Part shown: positions 2,710 to 32,000 of the stretch, in pieces | Layout: each line of letters begins with the position of its first letter | How positions within the stretch are numbered: position 1 is the stretch's first letter | DNA from: Candidatus Scalindua sp. | GTDB lineage: Bacteria; Planctomycetota; Brocadiia; Brocadiales; Scalinduaceae | Reading direction: 5' to 3' | DNA: 32,000 bases | Assembly (NCBI GenBank): GCA_031316235.1 | Contig: JALDRA010000001.1 | Location: 150,001-182,000, forward strand | Made by a program: the position numbers and the translations under genes | The notes under the pieces: generated by a model | Told to the model about the DNA's origin: nothing | What the model saw: only the letters and a program-made list of their open reading frames with translations | Database searches by the model: none

Positions 2710-2774
2710 TTAAGAGCGGTCAATCGATAACGTTATCATTAGCAGATTAAAGAGTCAGAAACGGAGAAGAAATT

Positions 2775-3983: not shown

Positions 3984-4001
3984 AATATTTGGGAGATTAA
4001 C

Positions 4002-7130: not shown

Positions 7131-7262
7131 ATTATGTAACGAGTTATTGATTACATTGATTAAGGGAAAGTGGTGTAAGTAGTAACGTATTCATTTAACT
7201 GTACACCTTCAAAGTCTGATCGATCTGCATGGTTAAAATTTATTCACACAGGTATTAATATA

Positions 7263-11600: not shown

Positions 11601-11802
11601 GGCTATTTCAACCAGTGTTGGAGCCGAAGTTCAGCGACCGCTTGCTACCGTGGTAATTGGTGGTGTAACTACTTCTACTCTGCTAACCTTATTTGTACTT
11701 CCAGCACTGTATCTCACCATGGGAAAGAAAATGGCGAAAACCAGCAATAAAAGTGTCCCCAGGCCAAATCCTGAGAAAAGTGTCAGGCATGACGCAATAT
11801 AG
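8656..11802 (+). CDS. CzcA-type heavy-metal efflux RND pump 2
   Basis: Start moved to ATG 8656 (MNKIIEFSLKNRL, matching the other pump N-termini; ATGA-type overlap with the adaptor stop). TM4 signature DFGIIVDGSVVMTEIN (9835-9882) keeps the D/D/E triad of CzcA. Confidence 0.92.
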   Translation: MNKIIEFSLKNRLVILILFAVFIGISVRAVMHIPIDAFPDTTPVQVQINTVASNLNPSEIEQQITLPIELSISGFSGLINVRSISKFGLSQVIATFDDNTNIYDARQFIIERLISVDLPEDIDRPQLGPISTGLGEVFHYILRSSNPDRTLDELRTIHDWIIKPELRKVSGVAEVNSWGGFERQYQVIVSPESLVKYTLTLNKVFETLAQNNQNVGGGRVVSAGQSLLVHGLGRVSTIEQLENIVLKAHKGAPVYIKDVADVVIGHEIRRGAVTSGGQGEVVLGLGFALMGENSKKVTEGLKKSLDVVRKFLPDDVEVEIVYDRTDLITKVINTVKHNLVYGAILVVLVLFLILGNLRAGLLVAIAIPISMLFAIFGMYEFSIAASLLSMGAIDFGIIVDGSVVMTEINMRKLNDRQRHLGRPLTNTERLQSISESSKEVIRPIIFGMGIIIIVFLPILALEDIEGKMFRPMAWTFIYAMIGALTIALLLSPILSYYFLPGKRREKEGFIERIIKGGYTTSLSLILRWKYTLFGIVFFLLLGTIIIATRLGGEFIPKLKEGSIVINTIRLAGVSIEEAVAYNSRIEKLLLGLFPDEIKNIWSRVGTAEVATDPMGIELTDIFITLNTRDQWKQARTQAELIKQMEEELEDLPGVNMIFTQPIEMRLNEMVTGIRSDVGIKIYGDNFEELVRLSNRAQEILKSVKGVSDIAGEQITGQPTLQVIVNQDQIARYGITASNVLNLVKTVGAHQVGDIFEGQRSFPLVVRLPEKQRTDVDALAKTLIPTESGQILPLRNLAEVRETEGYSTINREWGRRLIKIQCNVRDRDIASFVQEAQTRIENEMSLPDGYVIEWGGQFEHLKRSKIRFMIVVPIALLLIFLMLYFSLKNLVDVFIIYTGIPFAFIGGVSALWGRGMPLSVSAAIGFIALSGIAVLNGQILVSTIRVLRKEGLVFGEAVKAAANQRLLPVMATAITDAVGFIPMAISTSVGAEVQRPLATVVIGGVTTSTLLTLFVLPALYLTMGKKMAKTSNKSVPRPNPEKSVRHDAI

Positions 11803-11857
11803 AGTATAGATATTGATATTGGAAGTGTTTTTACAGGTAATTAATGGAGCAACAAAA

Positions 11858-11983
11858 ATGGGCGAACAAACATTACGGGACTTCTTCCTTGGATTCATTA
11901 AAATCCATATTCTTTATCACGCAGCAAAAGAGCCCATTTATGGGCAGGAATTTTCAGAGGAATTAACTGATGAATATGAATAG
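11858..11983 (+). pseudogene. Truncated PadR-family regulator stub (41 codons)
   Basis: MGEQTLRDFFLGFIKIHILYHAAKEPIYGQEFSEELTDEYE* matches only the first helix region of ~100-aa PadR-type wHTH proteins. It ends at TAG and overlaps the start of the next ORF in another frame. Confidence 0.45.
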
Positions 11984-13397
11984 AGATACTCAGAAACACA
12001 ATGGATTTGATTTATTACGAATTAATCTGATTAGAAAATTGATCTTATGGGCAGGCTTTCCTTATGTTTTTCAAATTCTCACCTTACTTGTTTTTTTGGC
12101 ATTGGCAGTCATTGGATCGGGTTTGTTTCCTCCTAATGGTGTGGATGACAAATTATTCGCCAAAACCAATCTTACGAATTTAACTATCTGGGGGCTCTGG
12201 TGGCCATTGATGATATGGGTTACTGTGCTGTTCGGACGTGCATGGTGTTTTATCTGCCCAATGGAAATTATTTCTAATTTCAGTGAACGGTTAGGGAGGG
12301 TAATAGGTATCAGGCAAAAACCTTTGAAGAAATGGCTGTGTTCCGGAGTATTAATTGTTGCTCTTTACGCTGTTATTCAGTTGTTAGTCGCAGGAGTGCA
12401 TCTTCATAGAATACCGGCATATACATCAATTTTTTTATTTACACTTTTGACTATTGCAATGTGTACCGGTTTGTTTCTTAAAGACAGGGCCTTCTGCCGT
12501 GGGTTTTGTCCGGTTGGCATGCTCTTGAATGCCTATGGGCGTGGTAGTATGCTGGCGGTTCGTCATGCCTCTGACCAGGCTTGTGCTTCCTGCACAAGCA
12601 GAGACTGCGTATTGGATTCTAATCGCAAAAAAATAGTTGGACGGAGTTGCCCCAGTTTGCTCAATCCTGCAAAACTAAATAGTACGAGCGATTGTCTGGT
12701 TTGTGGACAGTGTATTAAATCATGCACTCCATTCAACATGACGCTATTGCTCAGACGTCCTTTCCATCCTGCTGATTACCGGGAACCTCTGACTTCCTGG
12801 CCTCTCACACTATTCATCATGTTGGTTTCCGGATTTGTTACGTATGAATTATGCACAGAATGGGATCAGGCAAAACATGTTTTTTTGTGGATTCCACAGC
12901 AGTTATCTTTGGTTATTGGTTTGAGCACCAATAACGGTTGGATCAAAGGTTTTTGGACTTTGTTTCTATTTCCGTTCTTACTCTGGTCATTCTTTGGCGC
13001 TATCGTGAAAATATTTGAGTTCAACACTGACCTTACCACAATTTGGAGGCGTCTTGCATTACCGTTGGTGATCGTTATTTCAGCTGGTCATTTGGTTAAG
13101 GGAATAGCTAAATTAATTTCATGGATTGGTTTCTTGCCTTATGCGATACGTGATCCTTTTGGTTTTAAAACTGTTCATCAATTTACTTCCGGTATATTAC
13201 AAATTCCGGCTCCTTTGATTGATAAATTTGTTGTTTCGATAATAGGAATAGTCATAATGCTTATCGGCATATATTATGCAATTCGTGAATTCAGATTAAC
13301 ATATAATGAATCGCATGTGTATTGGTTAATACCAAAATTCATTTTAGGAATCATCTTTTTGTTCATCGTATTTGGTAAAGAATTGTCTTTTTTTTAA
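11970..13397 (+). CDS. Integral-membrane 4Fe-4S polyferredoxin (NapH/MauN/CcoG-like)
   Basis: 475 aa, multiple TM segments. Membrane CxxCP motifs (WCFICP, FCRGFCPVG). Two ferredoxin-type clusters (CASCTSRDC...SCP; CLVCGQCIKSCTP). Confidence 0.7.
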   Translation: MNMNRDTQKHNGFDLLRINLIRKLILWAGFPYVFQILTLLVFLALAVIGSGLFPPNGVDDKLFAKTNLTNLTIWGLWWPLMIWVTVLFGRAWCFICPMEIISNFSERLGRVIGIRQKPLKKWLCSGVLIVALYAVIQLLVAGVHLHRIPAYTSIFLFTLLTIAMCTGLFLKDRAFCRGFCPVGMLLNAYGRGSMLAVRHASDQACASCTSRDCVLDSNRKKIVGRSCPSLLNPAKLNSTSDCLVCGQCIKSCTPFNMTLLLRRPFHPADYREPLTSWPLTLFIMLVSGFVTYELCTEWDQAKHVFLWIPQQLSLVIGLSTNNGWIKGFWTLFLFPFLLWSFFGAIVKIFEFNTDLTTIWRRLALPLVIVISAGHLVKGIAKLISWIGFLPYAIRDPFGFKTVHQFTSGILQIPAPLIDKFVVSIIGIVIMLIGIYYAIREFRLTYNESHVYWLIPKFILGIIFLFIVFGKELSFF

Positions 13398-14598: not shown

Positions 14599-17538
14599 TT
14601 ACGGGTATTTCTCAATGCTTTTGGTCAATTCATGGGCAATGTTTCCGCTTACAAGACGCATGATACTCTCTTCCGCCGTTCCAAAACTTAATAAGTTTAT
14701 GCTTCCATACCAGACTATTTTCTGATCAATAATCGCGAATTTCTGATGAATATTTGACTTAAAGAGAACATTAATTCCCGTTTCCTTCAAGGCATTAAAT
14801 ATCTGTACCAGGTGTGATCTCCTGGTATCTTTAAAATCTTCAGCAGGCCTTGTCATTACTGTTACTTTCACTTTATTTTTTAAGATAGTGTGGAAGTATT
14901 GCATCATTCGAGGAACACGCCGGTTTGTTACAAATGGGCTGACAATCAATACCTCTCTGGCTGCGTTAACGATATCGCTGGTATAAACAGGGAAAAAGCT
15001 GTGTTTATCAAAAATAATCTCAGTAGGTATCTCAGTAACAATTTCTCCCTTTGCCCTATAACCGATAGATGCATAGCCTCCTAACCTTCTTCCATACATT
15101 TTCTCAAGTATTCTTACCTGAATATCCACATAGTCGTATATCCGTATTTCATTTTTATTTTCATATACTCTATGCAGTCTTCCGGCGTACTGCTGCAATG
15201 TGCCTTTCCAGGAAACAGGCATGGCTAAAAATAAAGTATCAAGGCGAGGCTCATCAAATCCTTCGCCAACATATTTACCGGTAGCAACCAAAGTCAATGG
15301 CTTATTTGCAGGTGTTGCAGATATTCTTTCAAATATCTCTCTCGTCTCTTTAACGCCCATACTTCCCACTAATGCTATTACATCCGGTATTCTCTCCCTG
15401 AGTTTATTTGTAAGGGATTTAACATGTGCAGTCCTTTCTGTTAAAATGAGAGAGTTCCTGCCGTTTTCATAACAACTTACAACATCATCCACGATTACCT
15501 GATTGCGTATTTCGTCTTCTATTAATTCCGAATAGATTTCTTGAATAGTTAACTCTTTTTCATTTTTGCCGGCTGAAATTCTAAAATATGAAAACCTCGG
15601 TATGACATAGTGGTCAAAAGGCATCTTTTCCGCCTGTTTTTTTGCATCGACTGTGAACCTTATCGGACCACAATATAAAAAAATAATCGGATGGTGTCCA
15701 TCCTGCCTTTCCGGTGTTGCCGTTAAGCCGTATATAAATTTTGCATTTGATTCTTTTACTATTTGTTCAAACCTAAAAGCTGGAATATGGTGACACTCAT
15801 CAACAATAATCATGCCATATTTCTTGACACTTTCCTTTACTTCACCTGCCGTATTTAATGATTGCATAATTGCAACATCAATGATGCCACTCAACCGGTC
15901 TTTTCCCGCTCCTAATTGTCCAATCAGACTTTGTTTCCTTTTTCTCCCTCGCTTTTCAGGCTGTTCCGGAAGCTGTTCATTAATAATCAAAAATTCTGAT
16001 AACCTGGTCATCCATTGTGATAGTAATTGTTGCCTATGCACCAGTATTAATGTGCTTACTTTGCGTTCAGCGATCAAACTTGCTCCAACAACTGTTTTTC
16101 CAAAAGCTGTTGTAGCGGATAACACCCCATTTTCATAACGTATTAATTCATCTACTGCACTGCGCTGTTCGTCTCTGAGCGCTCCATTAAATTCAACATC
16201 TATGGCCTTGCCATGATTTGTTTCATCAATCCAATTAGCATCTACATTATATTCATTTAAAAGATTACGGACATCGTCTTCACACCCTCGCGGCAAACAT
16301 AGGTACTTCTCTAAATCATCAGAACACGATATTACTCTTGGCTTGTTATAAGTAGGCATTCTCATCGCTTGAGATTTATAAAAGTCAGGATTTCTAAAAG
16401 CAGCTAATCGTTTTAAAGCATTTAACGCCCTGGAAGAAAATCCGGTTTTCCAGATATAGTGCATACCGGATTTAACTATTTTGACATTATCGGGAACATC
16501 TTCTTTCCGCAGTTTGACAGGAGTTGGTACCCATGGCGTATCTACCTCGACATCATCTTTTTTTAATGTACCCAATTCATTACCAGCACAAAGCCTGGTA
16601 ATTAAACAGGTCAAGTTCGTCTCGGAAAGCCTTTGAATACCAGCCAGAAATTCCCACTGATCTGCGTATGGGTCAAATTTTCCATCTACAAAGACACTAT
16701 TCCCATTTTGCCTTGCTGACATTTGAAGTGGCAGCGCTATTAAATTTCCAAATCCCCCTTTTGGCATAGTATCTTGATTAGGAAAAAATCGATCATAGGA
16801 CTTAAATGAAATTGCATGCCTCTTATTCATTGAATATGTCAGTAAAGATGTCCCGAATTTTCTGACAAGCGCCGCCGATACCCTATCCTCGAAGAAAAAC
16901 CAGGCATGTGCTCCATCACCTGATCTTGAACGCTCGACAGCAATAGGGATTTCAAATTTCCTACAGACATCACGTATAACAGAAACATCTTTTCCCCATT
17001 CATCATCGTCAAAATCAATCACTAAAAAAAAACAGGTTTCATCAGGAAACATCGGATAAATGCCAATAACAGATTTACCTCTAAGATGTTCTTCAACGGT
17101 ATTCACGTTTAATTGAGCATATAATTTCTGTGTGCATTTGGAGCATTTGATTTTTGGCTTTGCACAGACTCCCGGTTTCCACTCATTCAAACACACAGGA
17201 GAATATCCAGACACGCCTTTTTTATCTTGCCATCTTTTCGCATATACATCTTCCCTGCCCTTAAAAAGAGACATAAAAAGAATTATTTTATTTTTTGTGT
17301 CAGAAAAATTATTAAGAGGTTCAGCCTCAGCCTCTGTTTCTATAGATTCAATTCTGGGTATATTCTCACAGATATCCATGCTTGTTTCCTCAAAAGGTAG
17401 ATCTTCTACCGAGGTTGATTCCACCTGCAAAATACCGCTATTGAACTCAAGCATATTTATTTTATCTCTAAGTTTCGTGTTCTCTTCAAGTAGCGACTGA
17501 TATCTTCTGTATAATTCTTTGTAGCTGAATTTTTTCAT
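14599..17538 (-). CDS. Fusion protein: AEP/prim-pol-like domain + SF2 (DEAD/DEAH-type) helicase + C-terminal PLD/HKD nuclease domain
   Basis: 979 aa. AEP-like motifs VIDFDDDE, SRSGDGAHAWFFF, GGFGNLIALPLQ (aa 86-272). Helicase motifs AFGKT, DECHH, LTATPER, QYAGRLHR (aa 452-815). HKD motif HQKFAIIDQKIVWYGSINLL (aa 931-950). Confidence 0.85.
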   Translation of the reverse strand: MKKFSYKELYRRYQSLLEENTKLRDKINMLEFNSGILQVESTSVEDLPFEETSMDICENIPRIESIETEAEAEPLNNFSDTKNKIILFMSLFKGREDVYAKRWQDKKGVSGYSPVCLNEWKPGVCAKPKIKCSKCTQKLYAQLNVNTVEEHLRGKSVIGIYPMFPDETCFFLVIDFDDDEWGKDVSVIRDVCRKFEIPIAVERSRSGDGAHAWFFFEDRVSAALVRKFGTSLLTYSMNKRHAISFKSYDRFFPNQDTMPKGGFGNLIALPLQMSARQNGNSVFVDGKFDPYADQWEFLAGIQRLSETNLTCLITRLCAGNELGTLKKDDVEVDTPWVPTPVKLRKEDVPDNVKIVKSGMHYIWKTGFSSRALNALKRLAAFRNPDFYKSQAMRMPTYNKPRVISCSDDLEKYLCLPRGCEDDVRNLLNEYNVDANWIDETNHGKAIDVEFNGALRDEQRSAVDELIRYENGVLSATTAFGKTVVGASLIAERKVSTLILVHRQQLLSQWMTRLSEFLIINEQLPEQPEKRGRKRKQSLIGQLGAGKDRLSGIIDVAIMQSLNTAGEVKESVKKYGMIIVDECHHIPAFRFEQIVKESNAKFIYGLTATPERQDGHHPIIFLYCGPIRFTVDAKKQAEKMPFDHYVIPRFSYFRISAGKNEKELTIQEIYSELIEDEIRNQVIVDDVVSCYENGRNSLILTERTAHVKSLTNKLRERIPDVIALVGSMGVKETREIFERISATPANKPLTLVATGKYVGEGFDEPRLDTLFLAMPVSWKGTLQQYAGRLHRVYENKNEIRIYDYVDIQVRILEKMYGRRLGGYASIGYRAKGEIVTEIPTEIIFDKHSFFPVYTSDIVNAAREVLIVSPFVTNRRVPRMMQYFHTILKNKVKVTVMTRPAEDFKDTRRSHLVQIFNALKETGINVLFKSNIHQKFAIIDQKIVWYGSINLLSFGTAEESIMRLVSGNIAHELTKSIEKYP

Positions 17539-18656: not shown

Positions 18657-19031
18657 TCACAATAAAAGATTAATTACTTTTGGTTTTTTTACCTTTTTTG
18701 CCTTCAGTCTTTTGCCTTCCTTCCGAACCTCTTCACACGAACGGCGTTCAATTGGATAGTTTCCTGAAATGAATGTAAAGAGTGCATCTACCATTCGGGG
18801 GCGTATGATGTAATAACAACGTAGTACTCCAACCTCGTAAAAATCAATTACCTTGAGATTGCGCAGCATTGAAAGATGTTGAGAGAGGTTAGATTGCTCA
18901 ATTTCAAGTAAATCCTTGATATCAGTTACACATTTAGCTCCCTTAACAAGCTCTTCTAAGATCAATAGTCGAGTTGGATGTCCCAGGAGCTTTAGAACCT
19001 CTGCTTTATCTCTCATGTCTAATTTGTTCAT
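18657..19031 (-). CDS. ArsR/SmtB-family transcriptional regulator
   Basis: 124 aa. LKLLGHPTRLLILEELVKGAKCVTDIKDLLEIEQSNLSQHLSMLRNLKVI is the canonical ArsR wHTH. Lys-rich C-terminal tail. Confidence 0.88.
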   Translation of the reverse strand: MNKLDMRDKAEVLKLLGHPTRLLILEELVKGAKCVTDIKDLLEIEQSNLSQHLSMLRNLKVIDFYEVGVLRCYYIIRPRMVDALFTFISGNYPIERRSCEEVRKEGKRLKAKKVKKPKVINLLL

Positions 19032-20140: not shown

Positions 20141-20890
20141 ATGAGTAATTCAGTACAGACAATACCGTTTACAAATCTGGCGCTGGCTTTCATCCCGGTT
20201 ATCGCTGTTATTGCGATTATCTGGAAATGGGGACTTGGTTATAAACGATCACTTTACGCTGTCTTTCGAATGCTTATTCAGCTTCTCCTTATCGGGTATT
20301 TTTTATCCTTTATTTTTGAATCTGACAGCTCACTGATCGTTATCGCTGTTCTGGCTGTTATGCTTTTTACCTCAAGCTGGATCGCTTTGCATACAAAGCA
20401 TATCCCCAGAAGGATATTATATCTGAAGTCCCTCTGGTCTATTTCGCTGGGTGGAGGCGTAATTTTATTACTTATAACACAATGTGTCCTCAATCTGCAA
20501 CCATGGTATCTGCCAAGTTATGTTATTCCTCTTGCAGGAATGATTTTTGCTAACGCAATGAACAGCGTCAGCCTTGCTGTTGAAAGGCTGGAGGCAGAGA
20601 TTGAGAGGAACATCCCCTATGATCAGGCACGTATTATAGCCTTTCGCGCTTCTCTGATTCCTGTTATAAATTCTCTGTTTGCAGTAGGCATCGTTTCCCT
20701 TCCCGGAATGATGACCGGACAGATATTATCAGGAGTTTCACCATTCATAGCCGCACGATATCAGATCATGGTTATGTGCATGATATTTGGTTCGGCGGGG
20801 ATTTCATCAGCATTTTTCCTGACATTAGTCAGGTCTGATTTCATGACGAAAGAGAATCTTGAATCCACTGACACAAAAACACTGAAATAA
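20141..20890 (+). CDS. fetB: FetB/YbbM-family (UPF0014) ABC-type permease, iron-export-like
   Basis: 249 aa. QLLLIGYFLSFIF, IPLAGMIFANAMNSVSLAVERL and VSLPGMMTGQILSGVSPFIAARYQIMVM parallel E. coli FetB. No adjacent ATPase gene. Confidence 0.75.
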   Translation: MSNSVQTIPFTNLALAFIPVIAVIAIIWKWGLGYKRSLYAVFRMLIQLLLIGYFLSFIFESDSSLIVIAVLAVMLFTSSWIALHTKHIPRRILYLKSLWSISLGGGVILLLITQCVLNLQPWYLPSYVIPLAGMIFANAMNSVSLAVERLEAEIERNIPYDQARIIAFRASLIPVINSLFAVGIVSLPGMMTGQILSGVSPFIAARYQIMVMCMIFGSAGISSAFFLTLVRSDFMTKENLESTDTKTLK

Positions 20891-21843: not shown

Positions 21844-23136
21844 ATGAACGTGATGAAAATTTTATCTAGTAGCACATTTATTCTCGCAGTCTGTTATTTT
21901 ACGATATGTTCCAATAAGGCCCTGTTGGTGTCTCATGCACAGGAATCAAATACAAAGACTGAATATCTGACACTGGAAGATGCTGTTGAGATTGCCATTA
22001 ATAATAATCCCTTAATAAAGTCTAAAAAACATACTATGGGTACTTATGAAGGGAGAATAAAACAGGCAGGTCTGCTGCCAAACCCTAAGATTTTATTCTT
22101 CACACAGGAAATACAAACTAATGATGTAGGTTTTGATCAGAGTCAGAACTCTGTTGACGTAATCCAGAAACTAGAGACAGGAGGAAAGAGAAAACTGAGA
22201 GTTAGAGCAGCCGAAAAAGAAAAAAAGGTAATGGAATTTGATCTTCTCACTACAATAGCTGATATTACGGCAAACGTCAAAAAATCTTTCTTCAACGTGC
22301 TTACCAAACAGGATGAATTGAAATTTGCAGAAGAAACCTTGGTGATTGCTAAGAGTTTGATGTCTATTGCAAGTGAAAGATTTGAATCTGGAGACATAGC
22401 AAAGATTGAAGTTATCAAAGCTAAAATAGAATTGTCCAATGCTAAAATGAGGGTACAGGATGTTGAAAGGAAACATCTTAATTCGGTAAAAATGCTCAAG
22501 ACAGTCATGGGTGTACCAAACATTGTATTGCATAACCTGTCACCAATCTCAACTGCTGATACACCGTCACTAAATATGGACAAACTAAATGATCTGCTTT
22601 TAAACCGCCATCCCGCACTGAAAGCCCGGAAGAAAGCTGTGGATCTCTCACTCATAAAGATTACCGAGGCAAAGAGAATGGCCATCCCTGACATTAACGC
22701 GACTATTGGATACAAGAGGCTGACTGAAATAGACGTCAATACTATTCAGGCAGGAATAGAGTTTCCGTTACCAATTTTCAACAGAAATCAGGGCAAGATC
22801 ATTGAAGCCAGGGCATTTTCATTTAAGGCAAAAGACGATGTAGAGGTTGTCAGGAATCAATTACTACTTCAGTTGAACAATGCATTTAATTTATATATTT
22901 CTACCCGTGAACAGGTTAGTTTCTACGAAGACAGCATACTGCCACAGGCAGAAGAATCCCTGAAGATTGCAAGACAGGGATATAAGCAAGGTGAATTTGA
23001 TTATCTTGAGGTCCTGGATGCCCAACGAACGTTAGCAAACACAAGGATTTCATATTTGAAGATTTCAAATGAGTTTTTTTCTTCGATAACGGAAATAGAA
23101 AAGCTTGTTGGAGTGAAGATCTCTGATATTAAATAA
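21844..23136 (+). CDS. TolC-family outer membrane efflux protein, cluster 3
   Basis: 430 aa, signal sequence. LTLEDAVEIAINNNPLIKS and ...LDAQRTLANTRISYLKISNEFFSSITEIEKL are OMF repeat hallmarks. SD GAGAGG. Confidence 0.85.
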   Translation: MNVMKILSSSTFILAVCYFTICSNKALLVSHAQESNTKTEYLTLEDAVEIAINNNPLIKSKKHTMGTYEGRIKQAGLLPNPKILFFTQEIQTNDVGFDQSQNSVDVIQKLETGGKRKLRVRAAEKEKKVMEFDLLTTIADITANVKKSFFNVLTKQDELKFAEETLVIAKSLMSIASERFESGDIAKIEVIKAKIELSNAKMRVQDVERKHLNSVKMLKTVMGVPNIVLHNLSPISTADTPSLNMDKLNDLLLNRHPALKARKKAVDLSLIKITEAKRMAIPDINATIGYKRLTEIDVNTIQAGIEFPLPIFNRNQGKIIEARAFSFKAKDDVEVVRNQLLLQLNNAFNLYISTREQVSFYEDSILPQAEESLKIARQGYKQGEFDYLEVLDAQRTLANTRISYLKISNEFFSSITEIEKLVGVKISDIK

Positions 23137-23198
23137 TTCATGTTCAGCGCTGAAAATCACTGTACAATTAAGAACATTTTTTGCATAAGGATATTTAT

Positions 23199-24821
23199 AT
23201 GACAGGAGCATCTCTCTTTTATCAGCTCTGTAGAGTTAAACATTTGTATTTTCGTAAGCAAATTTTTGATCATGTAAAATCATCCGTGGTGAACAACGCA
23301 GTTATTTTATTCGTCACCGTTGCAGGTTTATTAGGAAGTTGTAACAGTGACATCCATAAACACGCTAATACCGAAAACGGGTATCCACACGCAGATGAAA
23401 TACATACCGGTGGAGCGGTCGAACCTCTTTCCTACACCCTTTACACGGATAAAGCAGAACTGTTTGTAGAGTTTAAACCTTTGATTGCAGGAGAAGTCTC
23501 AAAATTAGCTGCCCATTTTACCCAATTAGGAGAAAACTTCAAAGCCGTTACCGATGGCTTGGTAACGGTAAGCCTGATCGGAAGCAAGGAACAATTAATT
23601 GATAAAGCCGAACAACCATCATCTCCAGGGATATTTCGACTGGCTTTAAAACCAGAAATACCTGGTACCTATCAGTTGATTTTCGACATTCAGGCCAGAG
23701 AATTCTCTGACACAATCACGATAGATGACATGACTGTGTATCCTGACACAAAAACTGTTTTGGCAAATGAACGAGAACAAACAACCGGTGAAGAAATTGT
23801 TTATACAAAGGAACAGGCATGGAGGGTAGAGTTTGCCAACAGGGAAGTACAAAGACAGCCCTTTACTGAAATCATAAAAACTACGGGACAAATCGTACCT
23901 GCCCATGGAGACGAGACAACCATAACAGCAACAAGCAAAGGCATCATAACATTTGAAAACACTAAAATACTGTCCGGCTCTGCGGTAAATGAAGGCGAAA
24001 CCATATTTATAATATCAGGAGCCGGCCTGACAGAAGGCAATCTGGACGCAAAATACAAAGAAGCAGAAAACAACTATGAAAAAAGCAAAATAGATTTTGA
24101 AAGAGCCGAAGGTCTGGTAAAAAATAATATCATTTCACAGAAACATTTCCAGGAAATAGAACTTCGATACAAAAACGCTCAATCAACTTTTCATACTATT
24201 GAAAGAAATTATACTGCCGGTGGGCACCAAATCACATCACCAGTTGACGGGTTTATAAAAAATGTGATGGTACGAGAAGGAGAGTATGTTGAAATCGGCC
24301 AGTCGATCGCCAGCATCTCCCAAAACCGTAAACTCATCCTAAAAGCCGAAGTGCCTCAAAGGTATTTCTCAAAACTCAAGAGCATATCATCGGCGAATTT
24401 CATAACCGCTTACGACAGTAAAGTATACAGCACTGACAGCTTGAATGGCAGGCTCATCTCATATGGAAAAAGCGTAGAAAGTAACGCCTATTATATTCCG
24501 GTAAATTTTGAGATCAGTAATAATGGAGAAATCATTCCCGGTTCTTTTGTAGAAGTGATGCTAAAAACAAACGTTATTAAAGAAGCTTTGGTAATACCGT
24601 ACTCGGCACTTCTGGAAGAACAGGGCAATTATTTCGCCTATGTGCAGACATCAGGCGAAAGGTTCCAGAAGCGTGAATTAAAAATCGGCGCCAGTGATGG
24701 TATGAATGTACAGGTATCAGCAGGTATAAAGGAAGGTGAAAGAGTTGTCATGAAAGGTGGCTACCAGATAAAACTGGCAACAATGTCAGGTAAAATGCCT
24801 GCTCACGGGCACGAACATTAA
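23199..24821 (+). CDS. Efflux RND periplasmic adaptor 3 (lipoprotein) with ~150-aa extra N-terminal beta-rich domain
   Basis: Lipobox LLGSC. N-domain ...LYTDKAELFVEFKPLIAGE...GIFRLALKPEIPGTYQLIFDIQ. MFP core ITSPVDGFIKNVMVREGEYV. C-terminal MPAHGHEH. Start uncertain (ATG 23199, or an internal GTG near 23286). Confidence 0.85.
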   Translation: MTGASLFYQLCRVKHLYFRKQIFDHVKSSVVNNAVILFVTVAGLLGSCNSDIHKHANTENGYPHADEIHTGGAVEPLSYTLYTDKAELFVEFKPLIAGEVSKLAAHFTQLGENFKAVTDGLVTVSLIGSKEQLIDKAEQPSSPGIFRLALKPEIPGTYQLIFDIQAREFSDTITIDDMTVYPDTKTVLANEREQTTGEEIVYTKEQAWRVEFANREVQRQPFTEIIKTTGQIVPAHGDETTITATSKGIITFENTKILSGSAVNEGETIFIISGAGLTEGNLDAKYKEAENNYEKSKIDFERAEGLVKNNIISQKHFQEIELRYKNAQSTFHTIERNYTAGGHQITSPVDGFIKNVMVREGEYVEIGQSIASISQNRKLILKAEVPQRYFSKLKSISSANFITAYDSKVYSTDSLNGRLISYGKSVESNAYYIPVNFEISNNGEIIPGSFVEVMLKTNVIKEALVIPYSALLEEQGNYFAYVQTSGERFQKRELKIGASDGMNVQVSAGIKEGERVVMKGGYQIKLATMSGKMPAHGHEH

Positions 24822-25182
24822 GGAAATGTTAAATTTTAGATTTTGCATTTTAAATTAAGGATAACAACAATCAAAAAAGACAATATCATACTTGAGAAAT
24901 CCTTTGATTTTGCTTTAAGCATTATTGAGCTGTATAAGAATATGACTGAACAAAAGGAATATATTCTGTCGAAACAGATTCTCCGAAGTGGAACGAGCTG
25001 TAAGGAAATGTTAAATTTTAGATTTTGCATTTTAAATTAAGGATAATAACAATCAAAAAGGACAATATCATACTTGAGAAATCCTTTGATTTTGCTTTAA
25101 GCATTATTGAGCTGTATAAGAATATGACTGAACAAAAAGAATATATTCTGTCGAAACAAATTCTCCGAAGTGGAACGAGCAT
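24819..25182 (+). repeat. Two-copy 182-bp tandem direct duplication (24819-25000 / 25001-25182)
   Basis: The copies differ by 4 substitutions. The unit starts at the adaptor stop codon and covers the 5' part of the four-helix-bundle gene. The first copy yields a truncated ORF ending ...SGTSCKEMLNFRFCILN*. Confidence 0.92.
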
Positions 25183-25405
25183 TGGGGCAAATGTTGAGGA
25201 GGCTATTGCTGCGCATTCCAGAAAAGATTTTGCAGCTAAAATGATAATTGCCTCCAAAGAAGCAAGAGAAACTCGCTATTGGTTAAGGTTACTCCAAAAG
25301 AGCCAGCTGGTCAAATTAGAATTTACAATTCAATTAAATGATATTGAAACTATAATCAACATTATTACCGCTATTGTTAAAACTACTCAATCAAATTCTA
25401 AATAA
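25025..25405 (+). CDS. Four-helix-bundle protein (23S rRNA intervening-sequence protein family)
   Basis: ...KDNIILEKSFDFALSIIELYKNM..EYILSKQILRSGTSIGANVEEAIAAHSRKDFAAKMIIASKEARETRYWLRLL is the family signature. No in-frame ATG before MTEQ; a TTG start at 25025 is assumed. Confidence 0.8.
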   Translation: MHFKLRIITIKKDNIILEKSFDFALSIIELYKNMTEQKEYILSKQILRSGTSIGANVEEAIAAHSRKDFAAKMIIASKEARETRYWLRLLQKSQLVKLEFTIQLNDIETIINIITAIVKTTQSNSK

Positions 25406-25441
25406 TTTAACATATAAAATTCATCATTTAAAATTTCTATC

Positions 25442-28400
25442 ATGTTAAATAACATTATACAATACGCCCTGCATAATCGCCTGATGATTATCGCGGCATC
25501 GGTGCTGCTTTTAACGGCAGGCATCTACACAGCTTCCAGAATGGAAATTGATGTGTTTCCCGATCTGACCGCACCGACGGTAGTAGTGTTAACCGAAGCG
25601 CATGGAATGGCCCCGGAAGAAGTCGAAAAACTGGTAACTTTTCAGATTGAAACGACTGTCAATGGCGCCACCAATGTACGCCGGGTACGCTCATCATCAG
25701 CGGCAGGCATATCAATTGTCTGGATAGAGTTTGAGTGGGGAACCGATATTTTCAAGGCCAGGCAAATAGTCAGCGAAAAACTGTCAATCATTGCCGAAAA
25801 ACTGCCGCTGGGAGTAGGGAACCCCACACTTGCTCCTCAATCATCCATCATGGGTGAAATCATGCTTATCGGTTTATCATCAGACAGCGCAACCCCAATG
25901 GATTTAAGAACCATTGCCGACTGGAATATCCGGCCAAGGTTATTGGCAACAGGAGGGGTGTCTCAGGTCATTGTAATTGGAGGAGAATACAAGCAATACC
26001 AGATACTCGCGTCACCTCAAAAAATGAACTATTACAAAATTTCGCTAAATGACTTGTTGAAAGCAAGTAAAGAAAGCAATCTTAATGCTTCGGGCGGTTT
26101 TATGAATGAATTTGGCAACGAATACATCATAAGGGGCATAGGAAGAACAAACAAGGTGGAAGAAATAGGCAATGCCGTAATCAGGGTTGTCAATAATGTT
26201 CCGATAAAAATAGAGGATGTTGCAGAGGTTACAATTGGTGGAGCAGTCCCTAAAATCGGAGACGGTTCACTCAATGCAAGCCCGGCAATTATTATGACCG
26301 TAGCAAAACAGCCGGGAACCAATACCCTGGAACTCACAGAAAAAATAGACAGTGCCATCATAGAGATTACCAAAACGCTACCATCCGACATTGAAATCAA
26401 CACCAATATATTTCGTCAGGCAGATTTTATTCAAGCCTCCATAAGCAATATTCAAAAAGCGCTCATTGAAGGTTCCATCTTTGTAGTTATCATTATGTTC
26501 CTGTTCCTGATGAACTTTCGAACTACTATTATTTCCCTTGTTGCCATCCCCCTTTCACTTATCGTTTCCATCATTACCCTTAAATTATTGGGATTAACCA
26601 TCAATACCATGTCCCTCGGCGGAATGGCAATTGCCATTGGCTCTCTGGTAGATGATGCGGTTATTGATGTGGAAAACGTCTTTAAACGTCTAAAGGAAAA
26701 TGCACAAAAAAACAGTGAAGCGAGAGAAAGTACTCTTGTTGTAGTGTATGATGCCTCAAAAGAGATCCGTTCATCAATATTTAAGGCAACCCTTATCATC
26801 ATCGTAGCCTTTCTCCCCCTGTTTTTCCTCAGCGGAATGGAGGGTAGAATGCTGAGGCCTCTTGGAATCTCCTTTATCGTTTCCCTGTCTGCATCTTTGA
26901 TTGTAGCATTAACACTTACCCCTGTGCTGTGCAGTTTCATGCTTACCAATGATAAAATGCTTTTGAAACAGGCAAAAGGAAGTTGGCTGGAAAGACGGCT
27001 TAACCGATATTATCGTTCTGCATTAGAAAAAGTAATGAAAATCAAAAAGACAGTCCTTGGATTATCGATCGTGTTGTTCATTGCAGCGTGTTTTCTACTG
27101 TTTGGTTTGGGGAGAAGTTTCTTGCCTGAATTTAACGAAGGAACCTTGACAATAAACACGGTAAGTATGCCGGGCATATCACTCGAAGAATCAAACAAGA
27201 TTGGAAACAGGATTGAAAATATCCTGCTTTCAATTCCGGAAATCTCAATTACTTCACGCAGGACAGGAAGAGCCGAATTAGACGAACATGCTCAAGGGGT
27301 AAATGCCGCAGAAATTGATGCCCCTTTTGTTTTGGCAGAAAGAAGCAAGGAAGAATTCATGAGGGAAGTTCGGAGAAAACTAAGCAAAGTTTCTGAAGCT
27401 GATATCACCATCGGGCAGCCCATAGGACACCGTATTGACCATATGCTTTCAGGTACAAGAGCCAGCATAGCCATTAAACTTTTTGGAACAGACTTGTACA
27501 CAATGTTTACTCTGGCCAACCAAATAGAGCGCAGCATTGAAGGTATAGAAGGACTTGTAGATATCAGTGTGGAGCAACAGATTGAAATTCCTCAATTGCA
27601 GATAAAAGCAAGACGGAATATGCTTGCCAAATATGGTATTTCTATAGGTCAATTTACCGAATTTATTGATGTTGCCTTTGCAGGTGAAAAAGTATCTCAG
27701 GTTTTTGAAAGCAACAAAAGTTTTGACCTGGTATTGCGGTTTAATGAAGAAAACAGGGGAAAAATAGAAAATATCCGCACCGTTTTAATTGATACCAATA
27801 TAAAACCAAGTCAACAATCCAGAATTCAAAATCTAAATTTGAAAATTCCTCTGCATTATGTGGCCGATATTGTTTCAACAACAGGCCCCAGCACTATTAA
27901 CCGGGAAAATGTACAGCGGAAAATTGTTGTTTCAGCCAATGTGTCCGGGCGTGATTTAAAGAGCGTAGTAAACCAGATTAAAGAGACAATAGATGATACT
28001 ATTCAGTTACCGGAAAACTACCGTATTCAATATGGCGGCCAATTTGAAAGCGAAGCTAAGGCTTCGAAAATATTATTCCTTTCCTCTCTCATGGCTCTGC
28101 TCATTATAGTAATTTTGCTTTACCAGGAATTTAAAGATATCACGGTTACGGGAATAATTTTTCTCAATTTACCTCTGGCGCTGATAGGCGGAGTCTTAAG
28201 TATCTGGTTTACATCAGGAGTCATAAGCGTACCTTCTATCATTGGATTCATTACCCTGTTTGGAATAGCTACACGTAACGGGATATTATTGGTTTCACGT
28301 TATCAGGCCCTGCAAAGCCAGGGTATTGCTTTGCATGAAACTGTTATTAAGGGCTCTCTAGACAGGCTGAACCCGATCCTGATGACTGCTTTAACTACCG

Positions 28401-28564
28401 CTTTGGCATTAATTCCACTGGCAATAACAGGTGACTTGCCGGGAAATGAAATACAGAGTCCAATGGCAAAAGTGATATTGGGAGGCTTGCTCAGTTCTAC
28501 CCTTTTAAATTTATTCATCGTTCCGGTTGTTTTCTACCTGACACATGTTAAAAAAGTAAAATAA
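25442..28564 (+). CDS. CusA/CzcA-family efflux RND pump 3
   Basis: 1040 aa. N-terminus MLNNIIQYALHNRLMII. TM4 signature AIGSLVDDAVIDVEN (26633-26677). C-terminal NEIQSPMAKVILGGLLSST. No SD. Confidence 0.92.
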   Translation: MLNNIIQYALHNRLMIIAASVLLLTAGIYTASRMEIDVFPDLTAPTVVVLTEAHGMAPEEVEKLVTFQIETTVNGATNVRRVRSSSAAGISIVWIEFEWGTDIFKARQIVSEKLSIIAEKLPLGVGNPTLAPQSSIMGEIMLIGLSSDSATPMDLRTIADWNIRPRLLATGGVSQVIVIGGEYKQYQILASPQKMNYYKISLNDLLKASKESNLNASGGFMNEFGNEYIIRGIGRTNKVEEIGNAVIRVVNNVPIKIEDVAEVTIGGAVPKIGDGSLNASPAIIMTVAKQPGTNTLELTEKIDSAIIEITKTLPSDIEINTNIFRQADFIQASISNIQKALIEGSIFVVIIMFLFLMNFRTTIISLVAIPLSLIVSIITLKLLGLTINTMSLGGMAIAIGSLVDDAVIDVENVFKRLKENAQKNSEARESTLVVVYDASKEIRSSIFKATLIIIVAFLPLFFLSGMEGRMLRPLGISFIVSLSASLIVALTLTPVLCSFMLTNDKMLLKQAKGSWLERRLNRYYRSALEKVMKIKKTVLGLSIVLFIAACFLLFGLGRSFLPEFNEGTLTINTVSMPGISLEESNKIGNRIENILLSIPEISITSRRTGRAELDEHAQGVNAAEIDAPFVLAERSKEEFMREVRRKLSKVSEADITIGQPIGHRIDHMLSGTRASIAIKLFGTDLYTMFTLANQIERSIEGIEGLVDISVEQQIEIPQLQIKARRNMLAKYGISIGQFTEFIDVAFAGEKVSQVFESNKSFDLVLRFNEENRGKIENIRTVLIDTNIKPSQQSRIQNLNLKIPLHYVADIVSTTGPSTINRENVQRKIVVSANVSGRDLKSVVNQIKETIDDTIQLPENYRIQYGGQFESEAKASKILFLSSLMALLIIVILLYQEFKDITVTGIIFLNLPLALIGGVLSIWFTSGVISVPSIIGFITLFGIATRNGILLVSRYQALQSQGIALHETVIKGSLDRLNPILMTALTTALALIPLAITGDLPGNEIQSPMAKVILGGLLSSTLLNLFIVPVVFYLTHVKKVK

Positions 28565-28905
28565 TGATACATAAAACTCCCGGAATATCCAAACACTGGA
28601 GTCTAAGCCATGCTCATGCCAACGGCGCTGTAGATCCATCAATTTTCACTACTCAAAGAGGATTCTGGACTATCAAATGGTCTTTCACTGGATAGTCTGT
28701 TACCGTCATGTTTCAGATTGCTATTATCCTGCTTTCCGGGAGCGTGGCACTTCTTGCTGATACGATTCAAGACTTCGGCGATGCCGCTACCGCTGTTTGT
28801 TATGGTTTGCTTTTACGCTTGCTCGAAAAAATCCCACCAGTGGGTTTATCTATGACTACGAGCGGATCGAAGACCTCGCAGGTGTAGTTATCGTGCTCAT
28901 GAATA
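28564..28905 (+). pseudogene. Decayed cation diffusion facilitator (CzcD-like CDF) gene
   Basis: The ATG overlaps the pump stop (TAATG). MIHK...SHAHANGAVDPSIFTTQRGFWTIKWSFTG, in-frame TAG at 28693-28695, then SVTVMFQIAIILLSGSVALLADTIQDFGDAATAV. Frameshift near 28795-28800, then LWFAFTLARKNPTSGFIYDYERIEDLAGVVIVLM. The rest of the gene is missing. Confidence 0.8.
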
Positions 28906-28912
28906 AACCACA

Positions 28913-28949
28913 GTCTCCTTCTGGATTTGTGGTAATCACAGAAGGAGAC
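28913..28949. terminator. 11-bp perfect-stem hairpin, candidate bidirectional terminator
   Basis: GTCTCCTTCTG-15nt-CAGAAGGAGAC followed by CATTTCTTT. Lies between the end of + strand cluster 3 and the end of the - strand operon. Confidence 0.5.
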
Positions 28950-29086
28950 CATTTCTTTAAATAATACTGAATGGCATATACCGATCTCCTCCCTATAGTG
29001 GCCTGAGTGCTGAAGTCAGAAAGATGTATTACTATAGCAGGAGTATTTCGCATAAACTGTCACTATCAGTTTAAAACCATTTAATT

Positions 29087-29656
29087 TCAGGACTTCTGCT
29101 TCTCCTGTCCCTTTTTGCAAAGTGGACAGGCTATGAAGTCTATATCACAGGTATCGCAGTGTTGATCAAGCCAAACCTCTGACTTTTTTCCACAATCTGG
29201 GCATTTCATTTCCCACACTACAGGAGGCGCTATTGTTCCCTTAATACGTCTTGCAAGTACGTTCTTACACTTGGGACATCTACTCTCCATCGTTGCGGGT
29301 TCTAAATCTACCGATGCCTTCTGGCACAACACGCATACCATGACATCGTTTCCGCACTTGTCACAATGATGAACAGCAAGCTCCTTTACCCCGCCCTTAC
29401 AATGCGGACATTCCATTTTTTTTCCAGCTACTATACCCCTTTTGGTATTTGAAGTTAAACGCACTTCTTTACAGTGAGGGCATACCGGATACTCCATAGT
29501 CGGTTTTTCTGATGGCGATGCTGCCTCAACACTTCTGTGCGGTACCTTATGTTCGTGTTCTTCTTCTTTGGCATAAGCAAAATCACCCATTAAGATCATT
29601 AAGCTGACAAATGCAGTTACAAAAGCAAATGTTCCTATAAATTTTTTTTCCAACAT
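29087..29656 (-). CDS. Secreted protein with two tandem 4xCxxC modules (16 Cys), unknown family
   Basis: 189 aa. Signal peptide ending FAYA. KEEEHEHKVPH. CxxC pairs at C59/62, 83/86, 98/101, 108/111 and 127/130, 152/155, 167/170, 177/180 with matching spacing. Strong SD AAGGAGG. Confidence 0.75.
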   Translation of the reverse strand: MLEKKFIGTFAFVTAFVSLMILMGDFAYAKEEEHEHKVPHRSVEAASPSEKPTMEYPVCPHCKEVRLTSNTKRGIVAGKKMECPHCKGGVKELAVHHCDKCGNDVMVCVLCQKASVDLEPATMESRCPKCKNVLARRIKGTIAPPVVWEMKCPDCGKKSEVWLDQHCDTCDIDFIACPLCKKGQEKQKS

Positions 29657-29671
29657 CTGTTTTTACCTCCT

Positions 29672-30097
29672 TTAAAATGATTTAAATAAAGTATTTATTT
29701 CCAGGATAGTTTCACTGGTTATATCTTTATCACGATATTCATCATCACTCAATTGACCTGTGACTGTTAATTTTTCATTATTCTTCTTCGCTTCTTCAGC
29801 CAGATTTGCACATATTGCGATAACGTTTGTTTTATAACCATTTTTGTAGCAGTACATACGCTTACCGTCTTCTTCCAGAACCAATTGCCAGGTTGCGTAC
29901 TTATACCTTCACCAAGATACTCATTTCTTACTACATATCCTGAAATCTCTACTTTCTTGTTTCTATACAAAGATGGTGTATCAACAAGATTGGATATTCC
30001 ATTTTCTCATTGGTTGGTCATAGACACATCCGTCAAATGTTGTTATGACAAAAACAATTTTGATAGTAATTGAAATTTTTCTCATTTCCCCGTCCAT
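29672..30097 (-). pseudogene. Hypothetical lipoprotein gene disrupted by two frameshifts
   Basis: Three consecutive frames. (MDGE)MRKISITIKIVFVITTFDGCVYDQPMRKW shifts at an A-run near 29990 to ...GISNLVDTPSLYRNKKVEISGYVVRNEYLGE, then shifts near 29905-29915 to ...YKYATWQLVLEEDGKRMYCYKNGYK...LFKSF*. Start at 30097 or 30085. Confidence 0.6.
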
Positions 30098-30245
30098 GCA
30101 TCACACACCCTCCTTTACGCATCTTTACTAAACGATGGTTTGGGAGGGTGGAGGTGGAAAGAAATTGTATTAAAAAGTTCAATCAATGATGATGCCCTTC
30201 TTCCTCATGCATATGCCCATGGCCGTGTCCGTCATCATGTTCCCC

Positions 30246-30575
30246 TCAATGAGATACTGCTTGGGCTTCTGCACATTCGCATGGAACACCTTTTCCCGCA
30301 CAGTGACCACAGTCACGTTTTTCATGAAGTTGTGGGCATATACATGCATACTTGTCCGGATTCTTTGCAAAGGTGGTTTTACAGTTGCTAGAACAAAAAT
30401 AATACGTATATCCCTCCTTAGTCAATGTCTCTGCATTATCCTTATCAATCTGCATCGTGCAGACACGGTCTGTTACCTTTCCGCCTTCACCTGCGAGTGT
30501 CAGGTTCTCTGCATAAGTAATTGATAAACCAAGTAAAAGGATAAAAATAAGTCCAGGTGTAAAAATCTTTTTCAT
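30246..30575 (-). CDS. Secreted YHS-domain metal-binding protein with Cys-rich C-terminus
   Basis: 109 aa, signal peptide. YHS core DRVCTMQIDKDNAETLTKEGYTYYFCSSNCKTTFAKNPDKY, then CICPQLHEKRDCGHCAGKGVPCEC. SD AAGGAGG. The TGA stop is followed in frame by a His-rich tail (see findings). Confidence 0.85.
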   Translation of the reverse strand: MKKIFTPGLIFILLLGLSITYAENLTLAGEGGKVTDRVCTMQIDKDNAETLTKEGYTYYFCSSNCKTTFAKNPDKYACICPQLHEKRDCGHCAGKGVPCECAEAQAVSH

Positions 30576-31210: not shown

Positions 31211-32000
31211 TTATACAAGTTTTACCCGTCTGAGCCTTAACGAGTTGGATATCACCGAGACCGAGCTGAAACTCATGGCGGCCGCTGCTATCATCGGGCT
31301 GAGCAACAACCCAAACACCGGATAGAGAGCGCCCGCGGCAATCGGAATACCAAGCGCATTATAGATAAAGGCAAAGAACAGGTTCTGTTTAATATTTCCC
31401 ATGGTAGCGCGGCTGAGCTGCCTGGCCCGAACGATCCCACGCAAGTCACCCTTAACCAGGGTTACGCCTGCGCTCTCCATGGCAACATCTGTTCCCGTGC
31501 CCATTGCGATGCCAACCTGTGCCTGTGCAAGTGCCGGAGCATCATTGATGCCGTCACCGGCCATAGCGACGATAAACCCCTCACTTTGAAGCCGTTTGAT
31601 TTCATCAGCCTTCTGGTCGGGCATCACTTCAGCGATAACCTTGTCTATGCCGAGCTTCGCCGCTATGGCCTTTGCGGTGGCATAGTTGTCACCGGTCAGC
31701 ATGACAATTTCCAAACCTTCATCGTGCAGTTTCTGAACAGCCTCAACGGTATTTTCTTTAATAAGATCAGCTACGCTGACAAGACCCGCCGGTTTACTAT
31801 CCACCGCAATGTACATTACGGTTTGACCCTGGGAGCGCAATGACCCTGCTTGAGAATCAAAGTCACCGAATTCGACACCAAGATCTTCCATCAGGGAATG
31901 GTTGCCGAGAGCAACTGGTAATCCATCAACAATACCCTTGACTCCTTTTCCCGTGATAGACTCGAAAGATTCAGCGTTTGCAAGCTTGACTTTACGCTCT
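31211..32000 (-). CDS. copA: P1B-1 type Cu(I)/Ag(I)-translocating P-type ATPase, C-terminal part (5' end outside window)
   Basis: Frame open to the window edge. [19 protein letters not shown]7 N-x6-YN-x4-P ([14 protein letters not shown]) and TM8 P-x6-M-x2-SS-x5-N ([18 protein letters not shown]) are the Cu(I) subgroup signatures. Confidence 0.88.

Follow-up and report, generated by a model that had tools for sequence, protein, structure and literature searches.

In the anammox bacterium Candidatus Scalindua sp., a stretch of 32,000 nucleotides (the window; contig JALDRA010000001.1, positions 150,001 to 182,000) carries on its minus strand the gene for a 189-residue exported protein with eight CxxC motifs, referred to here as the CXXC protein. 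The gene is real, conserved, and restricted to one clade; its synteny with cation-efflux genes is tight; and the family that it represents is undescribed in Pfam and NCBIfam. The explanation that we favour, tentatively and with a little less than even confidence, is that the CXXC protein may serve as an extracytoplasmic thiolate metal buffer or chaperone for efflux systems, as its motifs and its neighbours suggest. Periplasmic metal-binding accessory proteins of efflux systems and Cys4 ribbons are kinds already known; what would be new here is an apparently Sec-exported, tandem, clade-specific, ribbon-like version inside efflux operons. The gene and its parts, in window coordinates, are as follows:

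29087..29656, minus strand, stop codon included: gene for the 189-residue exported eight-CxxC protein (from the open reading frame (ORF), the map of the cysteines, and the homologues)

29666..29670, minus strand: Shine-Dalgarno sequence GGAGG, a strong ribosome-binding site, 9 nt 5' of the ATG (read from the sequence)

29570..29656, minus strand: predicted signal peptide, residues 1-29 (MLEKK, hydrophobic core, DFAYA), with cleavage before K30 (from the core and the AxA site)

29537..29566, minus strand: His/Glu patch EEEHEHKVPH, residues 31-40, at the start of the mature protein

29303..29500, minus strand: unit 1, residues 53-118, CPHC-x20-CPHC-x11-CDKC-x6-CVLC

29090..29302, minus strand: unit 2, residues 119-189, CPKC-x21-CPDC-x11-CDTC-x6-CPLC, with a Lys/Glu-rich tail

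The initial annotation, which was made from the sequence alone, had described an ORF with a signal peptide, the EEEHEHKVPH patch, and two 4xCxxC repeats, and the map of the cysteines gives the spacings exactly as they were claimed (pairs at 59/62, 83/86, 98/101, 108/111, 127/130, 152/155, 167/170, and 177/180). The "several" CP.C knuckles of that annotation amount to five CPxC among the eight motifs. Each unit is about 65 residues long and holds four CxxC, and the two halves are related beyond their cysteines: units 1 and 2 align with a score of 94, compared with 28 ± 6 for full shuffles (z = 11) and 44.5 ± 10 for shuffles in which the cysteines are kept fixed (z = 4.8), with a score of at least 94 reached in 1 of 2000 of the latter.

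At the N-terminus, MLEKK is followed by a 19-residue hydrophobic stretch (mean Kyte-Doolittle value 2.1), by DFAYA, and then by KE, with no twin arginine. A lysine in the n-region, a core of at least 15 residues, an AxA site, and the lack of an RR pair give it the features of a Sec signal, and it looks like one cleaved by signal peptidase I between AYA and K; the Sec-type anatomy predicted here is kept in the homologues, which agrees with the signal peptide proposed at the outset. Within the family, the signal peptide and its AxA site are conserved, with a lipobox in place of the latter in one member; lipoproteins occur among the relatives. Such a signal could lead either to the periplasm or to the anammoxosome. 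The mature protein would have about 160 residues, with a computed mass of 17.9 kDa, a pI of 8.3, and a content of 10% Cys and 13% Lys.

The association with metals was assessed from genomic context, using a set of 52 non-redundant loci (51 fetched plus the window) in which ORFs were called and clustered. The CXXC gene lies nearly always downstream of cation-export genes and on the same strand, and in 39 of these loci a gene for a P-type ATPase, a heavy-metal-efflux resistance-nodulation-division (HME-RND) pump, a membrane fusion protein (MFP), or a YHS protein is found within 6 kb. In most of the other 13, the contig ends 0.6-3.2 kb upstream, and the octahaem gene of the Brocadiaceae arrangement described below is still present. 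The link to metal handling that had been proposed from the window holds more widely, since the gene recurs beside P-type ATPase, HME-RND, and YHS genes at most of the 52 loci and in different anammox lineages.

Several arrangements can be distinguished. In the deep Brocadiia (loci L056 and L057), the order is CopA, one or two three-unit CXXC genes, an outer membrane efflux protein (OEP), an MFP, and an RND pump, the CopA being a P1B ATPase with a CPC motif and a CopZ-like N-terminus; CXXC thus occupies a place comparable to that of cusF in E. coli cusCFBA. In Kuenenia (L049-L051), an ATPase, CusB, and an RND pump precede CXXC, and the order is similar in L008, L045, and L052; ars and mer genes follow the CXXC gene in L008. 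In L012, the CXXC gene stands between an ATPase gene and the genes for a CusB-like adaptor with four HMBD domains and an RND pump. In Scalindua, including the window, a YHS gene and a small lipoprotein gene precede CXXC, with RND and copA genes nearby. Finally, in Brocadia, Jettenia, and other Brocadiaceae (L001, L004, L013-L018, L025, L029, and L047), the block consists of a radical S-adenosylmethionine (SAM) gene in some cases, a P2A ATPase that is PMR1/SERCA-like and has an IPEGL motif, an exported octahaem cytochrome c with eight CxxCH, sometimes a YHS protein of about 100 residues, and CXXC. This block is sometimes preceded by the gene for an exported His-rich DUF5666 protein.

The octahaem cytochrome, which has a signal peptide, is encoded directly upstream and on the same strand in 21 of the 52 loci, and a radical-SAM gene lies in the same block in 12, so that a redox role has to be kept in mind. 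The CXXC protein would then be an extracytoplasmic redox protein that works together with the octahaem cytochrome c, as a rubredoxin-like Fe(Cys)4 electron carrier or as a thiol-disulfide relay with multiple CxxC. CxxC is a classic redox-active motif, the CPxC and CxxCG knuckles are compatible with rubredoxin, and neither rubredoxin knuckles and zinc-ribbon knuckles nor Fe and Zn can be told apart by sequence. However, no cytochrome gene is adjacent in Scalindua (window included), in Kuenenia, or in the deep Brocadiia, where the partners are efflux pumps; no rubredoxin or thioredoxin-fold profile in Pfam matched the window protein or the 35 aligned family members; and export via Sec requires that the cofactor be assembled outside the cytoplasm. 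We regard this redox explanation as quite unlikely.

Conservation of the family centres on the cysteines. In 35 aligned homologues, all 16 Cys are invariant, along with P60, M81, and M150; an alignment of 55 units shows no change at any of the eight Cys, at the Pro in the first CPxC, or at the Met that stands two residues before the second CxxC. This Met and the second CxxC together give M-x-C-P-x-C in all 55 units, which fits the MxCxxC signature of the heavy-metal-associated (HMA) metal-binding domains. Hardly any variation is seen in the Asp within the third CxxC or in the His that precedes this motif. The Brocadia and Scalindua subgroups have a recurrent E-x-HKH motif, which an "EKEPKGPE" subgroup lacks. 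The closest relatives, with 82-90% identity, are from Candidatus Scalindua. In the comparison with the closest orthologue (L007), the ratio of nonsynonymous to synonymous substitutions (dN/dS) is 0.62; for distant Scalindua orthologues, it is 0.22-0.25.

An even count of invariant Cys would allow eight disulfides, and the exported Cys-rich proteins of many bacteria are disulfide-bonded. The CXXC protein might accordingly be a disulfide-knotted protein, secreted or of the envelope, with no metal or redox role, its synteny reflecting co-regulated envelope stress. This we consider improbable: the CPxC and CDxC knuckles, the ribbon-like spacing, and the sub-threshold matches to zinc ribbons (see below) are features typical of metal-binding sites rather than of disulfide knots, the hosts live strictly anaerobically, and the persistent placement inside cus-like operons is left to explain.

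In the databases, the named members are labelled throughout as hypothetical or as "putative heme protein". The latter label, carried in UniRef and at NCBI by the members from Jettenia caeni and Scalindua brodae, would make the family one of c-type haem proteins. That is extremely improbable. The motifs of the window protein, each with the residue that follows it, are CPHCK, CPHCK, CDKCG, CVLCQ, CPKCK, CPDCG, CDTCD, and CPLCK; with no CxxCH among the eight, a c-type haem protein is ruled out at the level of the motif, and no cytochrome family match was obtained.

The family is small. A word-seeded search returned 44 homologues, and an exhaustive search with a hidden Markov model (HMM), run over 1.84 billion representative proteins, yielded just 35 relatives at E<=1e-3. 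All named relatives come from the Brocadiales/Brocadiia: Scalindua, Brocadia, Jettenia, Kuenenia sp./hertensis, Bathyanammoxibius, Hypogeohydataceae, Subterrananammoxibius, and "Planctomycetota" metagenome-assembled genomes (MAGs). A pattern scan of 185,579 species-representative genomes gave 48 loci, of which 47 were titled Brocadiales-type or unclassified "Planctomycetota" MAGs. The sole record from outside the Planctomycetota (L034) is a 3.3-kb contig binned as Thermodesulfobacteriota; its sequence is Scalindua-like, and the contig is probably mis-binned.

The number of units varies. Scalindua SCAELEC01 (L011, 8001-8765) has a nearly identical duplicate of unit 1, and the Jettenia protein (P0006) has unit 2 twice. 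The deep Brocadiia proteins have three units (L056, 6907-7614 and 7902-8591, which are tandem paralogues, and L057, 7878-8594). Units have been gained independently at least twice (in L011 and in Jettenia), giving proteins of two to three units, and this independent gain fits a modular binder. Four weak relatives of metagenomic origin (P0065, P0066, P0069, and P0072; E 3e-8 to 1e-4 against the family profile) have no signal peptide, an Asn-rich and eukaryote-like composition, and three to five repeats of CxxC-x17-CxxC-x10-CxxC-x5-CxxC. The existence of these signal-less relatives with a 4xCxxC repeat suggests that the unit itself is probably an ordinary intracellular module of the zinc-ribbon type and that export is the unusual part.

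The initial annotation could not place the protein in a named family, and the searches agree, since no curated threshold was reached with profiles, against the PDB, or with structures. As a single sequence and as a profile, the window protein had no match above threshold in Pfam, NCBIfam, or the PDB. Below threshold, it matched Zn_ribbon_6 (PF07191) with 19.9 bits and an E-value of 7e-4 (gathering threshold, 25), DZR_2 (PF18912) with 14.7 bits (threshold, 27), and the TFIIS ribbon with 17.2 bits (threshold, 21). Over the 35 members, sub-threshold matches at E<0.01 were obtained for Zn_ribbon_6 in 18 (best, 1.3e-5) and for DZR_2 in 15, with further weak matches to CRIPT in 15 and to HypA in 10. 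The DnaJ cysteine-rich domain (PF00684) gave weak matches in 3 of the 35, and its CxxCxGxG motif is absent from the window protein. Sequence searches of the PDB yielded only marginal zinc-ribbon or LIM matches (2jrp_A, E = 0.28).

Modelling with AlphaFold2 gave a predicted local distance difference test score (pLDDT) of 58 and a predicted template modelling score (pTM) of 0.30 for the full protein, with 35 sequences, and a pLDDT of 59 for the single unit, with 55 unit sequences. Both of these low-confidence models are rich in beta-hairpins and have a short helix that begins at the fourth knuckle. With Foldseek, neither model had a match in the PDB at E<0.1; the top ranks, which are not significant, were taken by the zinc-ribbon proteins Rpb9/RPA12, NrdR, and MqsA. 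An origin of the CXXC unit in the HMBD domains of the neighbouring CusB-like adaptors was also considered and was rejected (hhalign probability 13.8% over 12 aligned columns, with no Pfam match). A literature search covering anammox metal and Cys-rich topics and periplasmic zinc ribbons found no description of the family.

Zinc ribbons are typically structural interaction modules, and the only matches of the CXXC protein are to such families. It could therefore be a structural-zinc adaptor, in which the Cys4 sites would hold the fold and the protein would be a scaffold or regulator for efflux, ATPase, or octahaem complexes without carrying any metal. The non-Cys positions change fast, as the dN/dS at short range shows, which resembles what is seen in scaffold-type mini-domains, and the cytoplasm-like, signal-less 4xCxxC relatives can be cited in the same sense. 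On the other hand, a varying number of units and partners as diverse as P2A and P1B ATPases, RND pumps, and YHS proteins are unlike a single docking partner, and the zinc would still need to be acquired outside the cytoplasm. We hold this adaptor to be unlikely, though it is the least so of the explanations set against a metal buffer or chaperone.

In the window itself, the locus contains the following neighbouring features:

31211..32000, minus strand: 3' part of a copA-type P1B ATPase gene that runs off the window (NCBIfam CopA, 4e-82, profile positions 613-835)

30183..30575, minus strand: gene for an exported YHS/TRASH-type protein, 109 residues up to a TGA at 30246-30248, followed by a His-rich tail (Pfam YHS, 4e-11)

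29672..30085, minus strand: decayed gene for a small lipoprotein, "lipo18", in three reading frames with two frameshifts (three-frame translation compared with orthologues)

21844..28564, plus strand: convergent operon for an OEP, an MFP, a 23S_rRNA_IVP gene product, and a CusA/CzcA-type RND pump

The window had been read as an operon in which the CXXC gene follows a YHS gene and lies next to copA and RND genes. The YHS gene is indeed upstream and on the same strand, but it has a premature TGA, and the gene in between is frameshifted; similarly, copA is present on the minus strand, but the nearby RND gene (25442-28564; TIGR00914, 794.7 bits against a cutoff of 701) is on the opposite strand to CXXC, so that the two are convergent.

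The YHS protein has a C-x21-C-x3-C motif, and its gene up to the stop occupies 30246-30575 (minus strand). Beyond the in-frame TGA come 20 in-frame codons with the His-rich tail GEHDDGHGHGHMHEEEGHHH and then a second stop. The orthologues in L011, L032, and L045 have a Ser at the position of the TGA and an intact His-rich tail, and in the closest relative, L007, the tail is lost by a frameshift. Selenocysteine at the TGA was rejected as the simplest reading, given that the orthologues have Ser rather than Cys and that L007 loses the tail; judging by these orthologues, the TGA most likely arose by nonsense mutation or from an error in base calling. As to lipo18, it is intact in L005 (7185-7511) and L011 (7102-7602), has a signal with the lipobox ...FDGC, and is conserved directly upstream of CXXC in Scalindua; no Pfam or NCBIfam family matched it. 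The state of the window locus would be due either to assembly errors or to decay of the module around an intact CXXC gene. A sigma-54 regulator is encoded at related loci, but a pattern scan for a sigma-54 promoter upstream of CXXC gave 11 matches, compared with 16 expected by chance.

The window is a metal-efflux island, with copA, an ArsR-family regulator (18657-19031), and three CusA/CzcA-family HME-RND systems in 32 kb, each above the curated cutoff (1429-13397 and 21844-28564, plus strand). One RND system is followed by a gene for a NapH/MauN-like ferredoxin-type membrane protein (11970-13397), and a FetB-like permease is encoded at 20141-20890 near the RND systems. A cation diffusion facilitator gene seems to have left remnants between the RND and CXXC genes, just downstream of the latter: two short overlapping ORFs there (28708-28964, plus strand) match Cation_efflux below threshold (E 9e-4). 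In the efflux operon, the MFP and RND genes are separated by the gene for the "23S rRNA-intervening sequence protein", a four-helix-bundle protein, and a 182-bp tandem duplication with 96% identity repeats its 5' part (24808-25171, plus strand). A 979-residue protein with TOTE-conflict-system archaeo-eukaryotic primase (AEP), ResIII/DEAD helicase, and PLD nuclease domains is encoded at 14599-17538 on the minus strand; its gene seems to be of a defence type and to have been inserted among the operons for metal efflux.

Taken as a metal buffer or chaperone, the CXXC protein would work as follows. Its two modules of about 65 residues would each be a double zinc-ribbon-like structure with two tetrathiolate metal sites, so that four sites are predicted per protein and six in the three-unit relatives. 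The thiols would stay reduced in an anoxic extracytoplasmic space, whether the periplasm or the lumen of the anammoxosome, and would bind Zn2+, Cd2+, Cu+, or similar thiophilic cations that the P-type ATPases encoded nearby pump out. Thereafter, the protein would either act as a buffer for the metals or hand them over to CusBA-type RND pumps and YHS proteins, a role analogous to that of CusF or MerP with a different fold. The binding of metal, its identity, the number of sites, the hand-off to partners, and the compartment are all putative and read from the sequence. The only family matches, although below threshold, are to Zn-binding double ribbons, in keeping with this mechanism, and the MFPs encoded next to CXXC carry up to four Cys-rich HMBD metal domains. 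YHS domains have been proposed as transition-metal, probably copper, modules (PMC4626032).

A number of points weigh against a buffer or chaperone. Its function is deduced from a sequence pattern and from synteny, and the two structural models are of low confidence. Zinc sites of the Cys4 kind usually have a structural role and are slow to exchange, a poor fit with a chaperone. The commonest pump beside CXXC, and that of most Brocadiaceae, is of the P2A (Ca/Mn) type and not a heavy-metal P1B ATPase, and the gene immediately upstream there is that of the octahaem cytochrome, so that the neighbourhood gives no clear pointer to Cu or Zn. The representative genome of K. stuttgartiensis had no CXXC gene in the pattern scan, which means that the protein is not universal among anammox bacteria. 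Finally, the YHS and lipoprotein genes are damaged in both the window and L007, and this damage, together with the dN/dS of 0.62 between the two CXXC genes, suggests that the module may be decaying in the lineage of the window.

Comparison with known systems helps to place the proposed role. In E. coli, the cusCFBA operon encodes CusF, a periplasmic chaperone for Cu(I)/Ag(I) that has an OB-fold and a Met2-His-Trp site without Cys. Like CusF, the CXXC protein is small, exported, and encoded in or beside a CusCBA-type HME-RND operon, with the order copA-CXXC-cusC-cusB-cusA in L056/L057; unlike CusF, it has 16 Cys in ribbon-like knuckles and matches no CusF or OB-fold profile. MerP shows that a CxxC thiolate metal binder can work in the periplasm, and the invariant MxCxxC of every CXXC unit recalls the HMA domains of MerP and CopZ. 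In contrast with these, each unit has four CxxC instead of one, no HMA match was found at E<=1, and the models, as far as they go, are mostly beta-hairpins and not beta-alpha-beta-beta-alpha-beta.

The best profile matches, weak as they are, are to Zn_ribbon_6 (YfgJ, PDB 2JRP) and DZR_2, in which about 55 residues likewise hold four CxxC; the proteins of these families are cytoplasmic and consist of a single unit, whereas the CXXC protein is exported, tandem, and confined to one clade. The HMBD domain (PF19335) at the N-terminus of CusB-like adaptors is also a small Cys-knuckle metal module situated outside the cytoplasm in efflux systems, but it has no profile relationship to CXXC. Csp1 of methanotrophs, a copper storage protein exported by twin-arginine translocation (Tat), is a four-helix bundle built around a core of Cu(I) and thiolates, and metallothioneins form clusters. 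Both Csp1 and bacterial metallothioneins are Cys-rich, as CXXC is, and buffer or store thiophilic metals, Csp1 being exported too; CXXC differs in its regular CxxC knuckles, its Sec-type signal, and the absence of sequence similarity.

It is conceivable, if rather less likely than a buffer or chaperone in general, that we are dealing with a component of the Brocadiia's own: an exported chain of double Cys4 ribbons, loaded with metal after export, that would stand between P-type ATPases and CusBA pumps as a tetrathiolate buffer or chaperone in the role of CusF or, in the Brocadiaceae, as a rubredoxin-like Fe(Cys)4 partner of the octahaem cytochrome, possibly in the anammoxosome.

Anammox bacteria account for much of the removal of fixed nitrogen from the oceans and from wastewater. 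Their dependence on metalloproteins is strong, and the reactors in which they are grown are sensitive to Cu, Zn, and Cd. To our knowledge, little has been learned about how these bacteria handle metals outside the cytoplasm, the anammoxosome included. The CXXC protein is a small and easily expressed biochemical target, which would make it possible to test whether Cys4 sites can assemble and stay reduced in the periplasm or an organelle of an anaerobe. If the favoured explanation is true, CXXC would add to bacterial metal homeostasis a new building block, in which the zinc-ribbon fold is used outside the cytoplasm.

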